Shown here: positions 4,525-5,253 of the stretch, piece by piece
How the letters are laid out: every line of letters begins with the position of its first letter
Position numbering within the stretch: the first letter of the stretch is position 1
Source of the DNA: Escherichia coli
GTDB lineage: Bacteria; Pseudomonadota; Gammaproteobacteria; Enterobacterales; Enterobacteriaceae
Direction: 5' to 3' (one strand)
Assembly (NCBI RefSeq): GCF_003334335.1
Contig: NZ_QOWQ01000070.1
Length of the DNA: 7,938 bases
The notes under the pieces: generated by a model
The model's input: only the letters and a program-made list of their open reading frames with translations
What the model was told of the DNA's origin: nothing
The model's database searches: none
Program-made: the position numbers and the translations under genes

Positions 4525-4740
4525 TTAATCAGTAATGATGACATTTGCTGCTGCAGGACCTTTAGCACCACTCTCTATAGAGAAGGTAACCTTTTGACCT
4601 TCAAATAAGGTTCGATAATTATCATTCTGAATCGCAGAAAAATGCACAAACACATCTTTACTACCATCAACAGGAGAAATAAAGCCGAAACCTTTATCAG
4701 CGTTAAACCATTTTACTAAACCAGTCATTTTATTTGACAT
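4525..4740 (-). CDS. cspB: Cold-shock protein, CspA family (CspB-like)
   Basis: The 71-aa product [71 protein letters not shown] matches my recollection of E. coli CspB. The SD AAGGAATG precedes the ATG. Confidence 0.92.
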
Positions 4741-4915
4741 TCTACATTCCTTAACTTGAGCCTTTCGGCATAAATGGTTTGCATAACAGAAACGACTTCG
4801 TACTTAATTGGAGAGACTCAAAGAAGGAATAAGTGAATAACACCTGAAATGAGAACTGCTTTAGTAAACTACTTCGTATATCGTCTGTTCTTCAAACCGA
4901 CGCAATCATTAACGC
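4741..4915 (-). promoter_or_regulatory. Long 5' UTR of cspB with cspA-type upstream box and cold-box-like 5' end
   Basis: The minus strand contains GCCGAAAGGC (plus 4760-4769), identical to the cspA upstream box. The motif ATGCGTTAATGATT...GGTTTGAAGAACAGACG lies near plus 4915. The UTR length of about 170 nt is typical of cold-inducible csp mRNAs. Confidence 0.45.
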
Positions 4916-5040
4916 ATAGTTGAACATATGAAGCAATGTTTATTTTAGACATCCAGCCATCTTCAACCCCATCAAAAAACTATAGCTTTCTTCAGGAACG
5001 TGTGTATAGTGCGCCAAGTTATCAGTATTAAGGAATTTTT

Positions 5041-5253
5041 TTGTCCCGTAAAATGACAGGAATTGTCAAAACCTTTGACGGCAAAAGCGGCAAGGGTCTT
5101 ATCACCCCATCCGATGGTCGTATCGATGTCCAGCTTCATGTTTCAGCGCTCAATCTCCGCGATGCAGAAGAAATTACCACCGGATTACGCGTGGAATTTT
5201 GCCGGATAAATGGTCTGCGTGGCCCTTCAGCTGCCAATGTTTACCTTTCATGA
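5041..5253 (+). CDS. cspF: Cold-shock-domain protein of the CspF/CspH subfamily; TTG start
   Basis: The 70-aa product [27 protein letters not shown]...[13 protein letters not shown] belongs to the CspF/H class, where KGFGFI is replaced by KSGKGLI. The first codon is TTG (5041-5043) with TAAGGAAT 5 nt upstream; the next ATG at 5053 has no SD. It is divergent from cspB, as in Qin. Confidence 0.85.

Follow-up and report, generated by a model that had tools for sequence, protein, structure and literature searches.

The late region of Qin, a lambdoid prophage of Escherichia coli, carries a divergent pair of genes for cold-shock-domain proteins, cspB and cspF, and was analysed here in a Qin-type prophage sequence of 7938 bases (the window). 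We propose, with a probability of roughly 75%, that positions 3784-5545 of the window constitute a self-contained, horizontally mobile moron module located in the slot between the gene for the late antiterminator Q and the holin gene, and that its cspB would be read by Q-modified RNA polymerase when an intact relative of the prophage is induced. By homology, this slot is literally that of the Shiga toxin (Stx) phages of types Stx2c and Stx2k. The csp pair is part of a larger conserved module consisting of cspF, cspB, a structured RNA 3' of cspB, and ynfU. The two csp genes, where they lie in Qin and the degeneracy of the CspF motifs had been described before; the only new item here is the covarying RNA, which has no Rfam match.

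The csp pair lies between a lambda-type late control unit and the holin gene

Positions 1-7861 of the window are 99.96% identical to Qin of E. coli K-12 MG1655, and the Qin-type window was found in hundreds of complete E. coli genomes. Gene names and gene order follow the annotation of K-12, in which cspB is b1557 and cspF is b1558, and that of one fully matching strain. The late genes are on the minus strand, in the order ydfU, Q (ydfT/quuQ, 6427-5675), cspB, essQ, ydfR, rrrQ, rzpQ/rzoQ, cspI, ynfQ, ynfR, ynfN and gnsB. Plus-strand genes are interleaved with them, ynfS and cspF between Q and cspB, and ynfU between cspB and essQ. The slot and its borders are defined by the following features.

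5675-6427, minus strand: gene for the late antiterminator Q (quuQ/ydfT), lambda-Q family
5615-5644, minus strand: late promoter pR' from a promoter scan, with -35 TTGCAT (5643-5638), a 17-nucleotide spacer and -10 TAAAAT (5620-5615)
5600-5608, minus strand: -10-like pause-inducing element AACGATGGG, 6 nucleotides after the -10 hexamer
5546-5569, both strands: tR' hairpin with a 10-bp stem and a U-rich tail, from a terminator scan and folds
5041-5253, plus strand: cspF, 70 amino acids, TTG start after AAGGA, antisense to late transcription
4525-4740, minus strand: cspB coding sequence, 71 amino acids, co-oriented with late transcription
3556-3771, minus strand: essQ, class II holin (PHROG holin), the first lysis gene

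An initial annotation of the window, made from its sequence, had placed the csp pair between the Q/pR'/tR' block (5546-6427) and the holin gene essQ, with cspB co-oriented with late transcription and cspF antisense to it, and this arrangement was borne out. The open reading frames (ORFs) were found at the claimed coordinates, in divergent orientation and with their start codons 300 bp apart, and the genes for Q, holin, lysozyme and Rz are all on the minus strand. The hairpin that it had noted at 5550-5565 proved to be the GC core of the longer tR' stem.

The antiterminator, QuuQ, belongs to the family of lambda Q. It matches PHROG 127 (E=3e-105), Pfam PF03589 (twice) and a DnaJ CXXCXGXG domain, and aligns in two stretches with the lambda Q structures PDB 7UBM/7UBN (E=5e-36), the identity to lambda Q being 33% (tblastn). 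An insertion of approximately 40 amino acids relative to lambda Q (residues ~121-159, window 5950-6070) holds extra CxxCxGxG zinc-knuckle repeats of the DnaJ type. On the late strand 3' of the Q stop codon, Qin reads TTGCAT-17 nucleotides-TAAAAT-TTTTTC-AACGATGGG, whereas lambda pR' reads TTGACT-17 nucleotides-TAAATT-TGACTC-AACGATGGG; the pause element and its spacing are identical. Among Qin, 2H10, SfV and the Stx2k phage the pR' block hardly varies, with a single change in the -10 hexamer (TAAAAT vs TAAGAT), and the pause element is invariant in all four phages. We place the transcription start of pR' provisionally at approximately 5608. The promoter and pause element are followed by an intrinsic terminator, tR', the region of which is more stable than its shuffled counterparts (z = -4.7 and -6.1); the predicted short RNA folds with -30.4 kcal/mol (z = -4.7), and the stem exhibits compensatory changes relative to SfV and the Stx2k phage.

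Support from transcripts was obtained from published Term-seq data for K-12 (Adams et al. 2021, PMC7815308, Supplementary file 1), which cover three growth conditions without induction. Published positions minus 1636814 gave window coordinates, which were verified with the sequence contexts printed in the file. All three conditions yielded a minus-strand RNA 3' end at 5542 and, consequently, pR' is active and tR' terminates its transcripts in uninduced K-12. The hairpin is bidirectional: besides stopping the short minus-strand transcript of pR', it has, judged by its sequence, the form of a terminator for convergent cspF-ynfS transcription on the plus strand; no plus-strand 3' end was recorded at tR' in the three Term-seq conditions.

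Three minor observations concern this site. The short RNA from pR' to tR' (5535-5608, minus strand), which is made in uninduced K-12, is approximately 65 nucleotides long with two hairpins. In a comparison of only two lineages, the late strand 5' of the tR' stem (5570-5590) is A-rich, AAGAAAAAGTAGAAAA, in csp-carrying Qin and 2H10, which provides the hairpin with a good U-tract on the other strand, where the convergent cspF-ynfS unit is transcribed; the sequence is GATAAGATTTAAGAA in SfV and the Stx2k phage, neither of which has a convergent gene. A further late-strand 3' end was recorded at 5374, 170 nucleotides past tR' and antisense to ynfS, in one of the three conditions (the second sheet, by caption order LB medium at an optical density of 2.0), where its score was above that of the tR' end; it shows that there is some RNA past tR', which could stem from read-through of tR' or from a separate start.

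The slot is that of Stx phages and its content has the properties of a moron

The Q proteins of 15 Stx2c-converting phages and of phiSTEC1575-Stx2k are 93-94% identical to QuuQ in amino acid sequence. In blastn comparisons with the Stx2k phage, SfV, mEp460 and Ayreon, homology extends over 5546-6758 (approximately 89%), ends exactly at the base of the tR' hairpin, and is found again from the holin start or slightly above it (3783 or lower). These boundaries define the slot in the window as 3784-5545. In the Stx2k phage the slot contains small ORFs, a helix-turn-helix protein, three tRNAs, stx2A, stx2B and an antisense iraM-like gene, followed by a holin that is 76% identical to EssQ. SfV, mEp460 and Ayreon have other cargo, e.g. 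a DNA methylase, after the same Q/pR'/tR' block. The view that the csp genes occupy the position used for stx by Stx phages is thus supported by a homologous Q, pR'/tR' and holin around stx2AB, the cargo in both cases lying between tR' and the holin gene. No tRNA gene was found in the window by a tRNA scan, and the slot tRNAs of the Stx phage are lacking here.

Morons, a concept of Hendrix and Juhala, are exemplified by bor and lom of lambda and by the morons of HK97. The genes that flank the content of the Qin slot enclose different cargo in related phages, and this content carries its own promoter (that of cspB; for cspF there is a promoter candidate only) and terminators at 4243-4224 and 5546-5569. 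Its composition is also distinct, with a GC content of 0.32-0.45 across 3750-5550 vs 0.45-0.54 in the lysis genes, Q and ydfU. Identical or nearly identical copies of the cassette occur in the whole phage genomes PhiR42_1 (100%), HannyBb, PhiR63_1, 2H10 and Tritos. Of 5426 complete E. coli genomes, 1619 have it at a coverage of at least 80%, for the most part within prophages.

cspB has its own promoter and a cspA-type leader

4902-4950, minus strand: cspB promoter, with an AT-rich UP-like block, -35 TTGCTT (4936-4931) and an extended -10 TGCGTTAAT (4916-4908)
4741-4901, minus strand: 5' untranslated region (UTR) of cspB, of the cspA thermoregulator type, with cold box 4883-4894 and upstream box 4757-4769
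4451-4416, minus strand: 14-bp hairpin, followed at 4410-4412 by the dominant 3' end of cspB-strand RNA (fold and Term-seq)
1641-1999, minus strand: cspI (gene 1853-1641) with a cspA-type leader (RF01766, 112.8 bits), the second csp cargo gene, just after the lysis cassette

CspB matches the CspA subfamily of NCBIfam (144 bits, cut-off 130), and all three of CspB, CspF and CspI match NCBIfam models as well as PHROG 729. In CspB and CspI the aromatic RNP1 (KGFGFI) and RNP2 (DVFVHF) motifs are intact, and the same applies to CspG.

That cspB has a cspA-type leader of its own, as the initial annotation had it, was confirmed. The promoter aligns with those of cspA, cspG and cspI, and the whole cspB mRNA (4901-4509) scores 158.8 bits with Rfam RF01766, for which the gathering score is 78. 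A published cspB construct begins at GTCGGTTTGAAG, i.e. at window position 4901 (PMC7815308). The further claim of a cspA-type upstream box in both cspB and cspI held fully for cspB, where the 13 nucleotides are exact. The cspI box is degenerate, with three substitutions that keep its small hairpin, and cspI is without a cold box.

Abundant ends of cspB-strand RNA were recorded in uninduced K-12. A Rho-dependent 3' end is located at 4820 in the cspB 5' UTR and a Rho termination region within the ORF at 4723, and fusions comprising the 5' UTR and ORF of cspB or cspG were more than 2-fold up in a rho mutant (PMC7815308). According to these published data, cspB transcripts are attenuated by Rho in the leader and ORF at 37 °C. 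The leader would, judging from its family membership, permit translation in the cold. Cold induction of cspB is known. In each of the three conditions the dominant 3' end at 4410-4412 scored between 6e5 and 2.5e6 by Term-seq.

A strong Shine-Dalgarno (SD) sequence, AAGGAGG, is sequestered in the 14-bp hairpin, 5' of an 11-codon ORF at 4417-4378 (minus strand). The product would be MKQWLAYLAKS (MKQWPAYLAIT in 2H10); the ORF overlaps the 5' arm of helix P0 of the RNA described below and is not conserved in other lineages.

CspF is a conserved protein with degenerate motifs and without a cspA-type leader

4979-5040, plus strand: candidate cspF promoter and short leader, with -10 TATAGT (5005-5010) and SD sequence AAGGA (5031-5035), predicted from sequence
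5308-5397, plus strand: ynfS, a 29-amino-acid small protein 3' of cspF, antisense to late transcription, annotated in K-12

CspF matches the Pfam cold-shock domain CSD (PF00313, E=6e-22) and the NCBIfam CspF model (160 bits, cut-off 111). Its RNP1 is the variant that had been pointed out for it, residues 15-21 reading KSGKGLI vs KGFGFI in CspB, CspI and CspG, and RNP2 is DVQLHV vs DVFVHF in the same three proteins. CspF thereby does not have the aromatic RNP1 and RNP2 of CspA-family proteins, and its paralogue CspH is likewise degenerate in both motifs. CspF and CspH have been described as devoid of the aromatic RNA-binding residues and their function reported as unknown (PMC6719143). A cspA-type upstream box had been denied to cspF, and we found no RF01766 match around the gene even at E<=1. 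The upstream regions of cspF and cspH have GTATAGTGC and TAAGGAATT in common, and the candidate -10 and the SD sequence are conserved between the two genes. We rejected the possibility that cspF is a decaying pseudogene: its product is 62-76% conserved in amino acid sequence across genera and the gene is always intact beside cspB.

The YnfS protein has been detected by tagging (PMC6001520). Phage Tritos exhibits a clean 258-nucleotide deletion (window 5244-5501) that removes the last cspF codons, all of ynfS and the spacer to just before tR', and cspF-ynfS is consequently dispensable for Tritos.

The csp pair is part of a mobile four-part module

When one genome per species was scanned for a motif conserved 3' of cspB, the result was 15 loci in Enterobacter, Kluyvera, Kosakonia, Phytobacter, Superficieibacter and metagenome-assembled genomes, all of which have a cspB-like gene 154-235 nucleotides upstream of the motif. 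The recurrent layout (tblastn) is a divergent cspF-like gene (62-76% amino acid identity), a cspB-like gene (66-82%), the RNA, and a convergent ynfU-like gene (59-75%). The cargo is, accordingly, a conserved four-part module that moves between phage contexts.

Contexts were surveyed for 135 loci, 120 of which are on viral contigs. The module is situated between Q and the lysis genes, with the polarity of the window, at approximately 70 loci, and beside integrase, an SOS-response peptidase (SRAP) and umuDC, as in phage PHB10, at approximately 28. Another 12 are phage-plasmids with cspB and the RNA only, after dnaE; the remaining loci are truncated where their contigs stop. A Superficieibacter prophage has the module between a Q of an unrelated family (phrog_753) and a holin-endolysin-Rz cassette, with cspB in sense and cspF and ynfU in antisense orientation and with an RF01766 leader. 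These contexts demonstrate that the module is autonomous and mobile, and that the Q-holin slot is its commonest home and not the sole one. From its occurrence outside that slot it follows that late read-through is not needed for its function.

Two loci that in a loose tally had the module beside an oppositely oriented lysis cassette were not reproduced with stricter filters and were discarded. At the Superficieibacter locus (L028), the small RNA STnc100 of Rfam was matched with 68 bits (gathering score 47) at 4629-4758 on the plus strand, in the interval that separates the ynfU-like gene from the holin.

Proposed expression of the module and alternative explanations

The cassette comprises a plus-strand cspF-ynfS unit, a minus-strand cspB under a cspA-type promoter and with a thermosensing UTR, the structured RNA with a terminator, and ynfU on the plus strand; the cspB unit is bounded by intrinsic terminators. 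In the lysogen, pR' fires constitutively and its RNA of approximately 65 nucleotides stops at tR', as the Term-seq ends show, and cspB runs from its own promoter. When an intact relative is induced to lytic growth, Q would be expected to load at pR', as the lambda-type Q-binding element region and the pause element suggest. The polymerase, having become terminator- and Rho-resistant, would continue past tR', antisense over ynfS-cspF and sense through cspB, and then past the terminator at 4243-4224, antisense over ynfU, into essQ-ydfR-rrrQ-rzpQ and cspI. Expression of cspB would resemble that of stx1, which combines a conditional promoter of its own with passive inclusion in the late transcript. 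On the other strand, cspF and ynfU would face convergent transcription, and transcriptional interference on both is plausible. The predictions of the initial annotation, Q-driven read-through into cspB and interference with cspF, remain reasonable. Because ordinary K-12 cultures have an active Qin pR' whose transcripts end at tR', read-through by Q is directly testable in K-12.

Several observations weigh against this proposal. It is doubtful that the late transcript would yield CspB protein at 37 °C, since it retains the thermosensing leader. The literature searched contained no report of Q-dependent read-through in Qin or its intact relatives, and searches on Q-dependent expression of cspB/cspF, on the function of quuQ/ydfT and on a description of the region as a "moron" found nothing relevant. 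Qin of K-12 is defective. The chromosomal genes cspG and cspH respond alike (PMC11228462), which argues for csp-specific control rather than for Q, and all six cspA-type and cspF/cspH genes co-vary in transcriptomes from urinary tract infection (UTI). The integrase/SRAP/umuDC loci and the phage-plasmids with cspB and the RNA are outside the Q-holin slot, and the holin gene has an RNA polymerase-binding site of its own at 3897-3924.

Some of the same observations favour an alternative, to which we assign a likelihood not far short of even. Here the module would be pure lysogenic-conversion cargo, serving the host under cold or translation stress; the slot would be a permissive recombination hot-spot, with read-through as a by-product and the orientation unselected. 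On either side the module is equipped with promoters and terminators of its own, it is also carried near integrase genes and by phage-plasmids, and the cspA-type genes and cspF/cspH are co-activated in the UTI transcriptomes and after AZT whatever their location. The frequency of the cassette in complete E. coli genomes (1619 of 5426, mostly in prophages) points in the same direction. On the other hand, two unrelated Q families are found with one and the same polarity of the module in the slot; many of the loci are, however, close relatives. Host cargo and read-through by Q are not mutually exclusive.

Benefit to the phage itself we regard as unlikely. CspB and CspI produced from the late transcript would in that case act as RNA chaperones or antiterminators, aiding late expression and lysis in the cold. 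Two co-oriented cspA-type genes indeed bracket the lysis cassette in Qin, 2H10 and Tritos, and CspA-family proteins are, as cited in PMC11228462, nucleic-acid chaperones that act via antitermination. Yet no csp match was found after Rz in the Superficieibacter prophage, and the module also exists without nearby lysis genes.

A role of CspF as regulator or antagonist of CspB, e.g. as a non-RNA-binding decoy, which would explain the divergent linkage across genera, is less probable still: a cspF-like gene is found approximately 280-300 bp divergent from the cspB-like gene in Enterobacter, Kluyvera, Kosakonia, Phytobacter, Superficieibacter and PHB10, and the paralogous cspH-cspG pair has the same layout, but the phage-plasmids carry cspB and the RNA without cspF, and Tritos has lost the 3' end of cspF.

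A conserved structured RNA downstream of cspB

4245-4408, minus strand: conserved structured RNA of the cspB 3' region, approximately 160 nucleotides, five helices P0-P4

The RNA starts 2-4 nucleotides after the dominant Term-seq 3' end, and its block is conserved amid otherwise diverged cspB 3' regions. Two alignments (A6 and A7) of 17-18 distinct sequences were evaluated. In the five helices, 96-97% of the cells are paired, vs 24-60% when the partners are slid by 1-3 columns, and RNAalifold independently recovers four of the five. Compensatory changes occur in 9-11 pairs, and none of 500 shuffles reached the observed covariation, which derives from only some 5-6 independent lineages and from homologues seeded by an exact-match pattern. 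The G-U pairs place the structure on the cspB-sense strand, and there is no variation in AAGCUAA and AAAGUGCGUAAG, which form loops and linkers. Covariation links the segment 4353-4357 to upstream 4404-4408 as well as to downstream 4247-4251, which suggests that the two partners represent alternative conformations, i.e. a conformational switch.

A covariance model found exactly one copy of the RNA per locus, and no copy near cspI, cspG or cspA, none at the chromosomal cspH-cspG-ymcF-ymcE-gnsA locus, and no match in the 3' region of pJN2-26. Its occurrence was confined to sites 3' of cspB-type genes, in Enterobacteriaceae prophages, phage-plasmids and plasmids. No Rfam family matched the cspB 3' region at gathering score; the hits to Trp_leader and isrK were rejected, as they comprise the terminator hairpin only. 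We also rejected a small protein as the reason for conservation of the block, since the frame is broken by 1-nucleotide indels between lineages and the G-U pairs point to one strand. When the RNA was matched with the 5' regions of cspB, cspF, ynfU, ynfS, essQ and cspI, no duplex signal was obtained (z no better than -1.9). We found nothing to indicate a stable 4245-4408 RNA at 37 °C.

We tentatively suggest that this is an undescribed RNA of approximately 160 nucleotides with a switch, travelling with the cspB module, which might act as a processed regulatory RNA or as a cis-element that affects the fate of the cspB mRNA or of the late transcript. Should it prove functional, E. coli K-12 itself would harbour a new regulatory element. 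In Enterobacter sp. JUb54 (L024, 866-1008) the 5' half of the RNA is replaced by tandem GCCTGAAA repeats.

Comparison with known systems

The Qin module resembles the cargo of stx phages in its position directly after tR' and before the holin, with Stx2k flanks at 93% (Q, amino acids), approximately 89% (pR'/tR', nucleotides) and 76% (holin, amino acids), and it has the Q gene and the pR'/tR' block in common with Stx2c phages. With stx1 of Sp15/H-19B it shares a conditional promoter of its own beside possible read-through from pR' (for stx1, PMC7547250). In contrast to stx phages, the cargo is of cold-shock type, without toxin or tRNA genes, and cspF-ynfS and ynfU are antisense. Dependence on Q has been demonstrated for stx, whereas for cspB it is deduced from the arrangement.

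Like lambdoid morons, the module is extra DNA of lower GC content that has a promoter and a terminator to itself and separates genes which, in relatives, adjoin each other or enclose other cargo. Unlike single-gene morons, the Qin module is multi-genic, with three transcription units and a structured RNA.

The RNA from pR' to tR' is the Qin counterpart of lambda 6S RNA and of StxS. Like these it is a constitutive short late-promoter RNA that ends at tR' without induction (concept in PMC7547250), but it is much shorter, approximately 65 nucleotides compared with 194 for lambda 6S RNA and 258 for the StxS precursor. The cspA mRNA thermosensor (RF01766) is matched by the cspB and cspI mRNAs above gathering score on the full model. 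Unlike cspA, cspB has no terminator directly after its stop codon and is followed instead by a structured 3' region of approximately 300 nucleotides.

The chromosomal cspH-cspG-ymcF-ymcE-gnsA locus has the same divergent pair and intergenic region as Qin (76% nucleotide identity over 635 nucleotides). It differs from Qin in being core-like, with a match in 5413 of 5426 genomes, and in being without Q or lysis genes. In K-12, cspH-cspG-gnsA is collinear (73-76% nucleotide identity) with window positions 4626-5249, 1494-1857 and 793-985, so that the collinear parts, cspF and the 5' part of cspB joined to cspI-ynfQ...gnsB (73-74%), amount to the Qin late region minus the lysis cassette. The two loci differ in the lysis cassette as if by recombination between two csp genes, and the sequences would fit either direction.

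Further features between cspB and the lysis genes

4224-4243, both strands: intrinsic terminator between the cspB unit and the holin, with a strong U-tract on the minus strand, which also ends ynfU on the plus strand
3991-4161, plus strand: ynfU, a 56-amino-acid zinc-binding small protein (NCBIfam NF038384), convergent with cspB and antisense to late transcription
3897-3924, minus strand: sigma-70-type site TTTATA-16-AATAAT upstream of the holin, from a promoter scan

A plus-strand 3' end at 4246, after the hairpin at 4224-4243, and no minus-strand 3' end at this terminator, were recorded in the K-12 Term-seq data. A ynfU-like gene co-occurs with a cspB-like gene in many genera. The hexamers at 3897-3924 are the same as those of an RNA polymerase-binding "constitutive promoter" with H-NS that genomic SELEX assigned to essQ (PMC3946193), and the site is a possible Q-independent route to expression of the lysis genes. 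The last 77 bases of the window (7862-7938) do not align to K-12 Qin; in many strains an insertion sequence element is inserted there.

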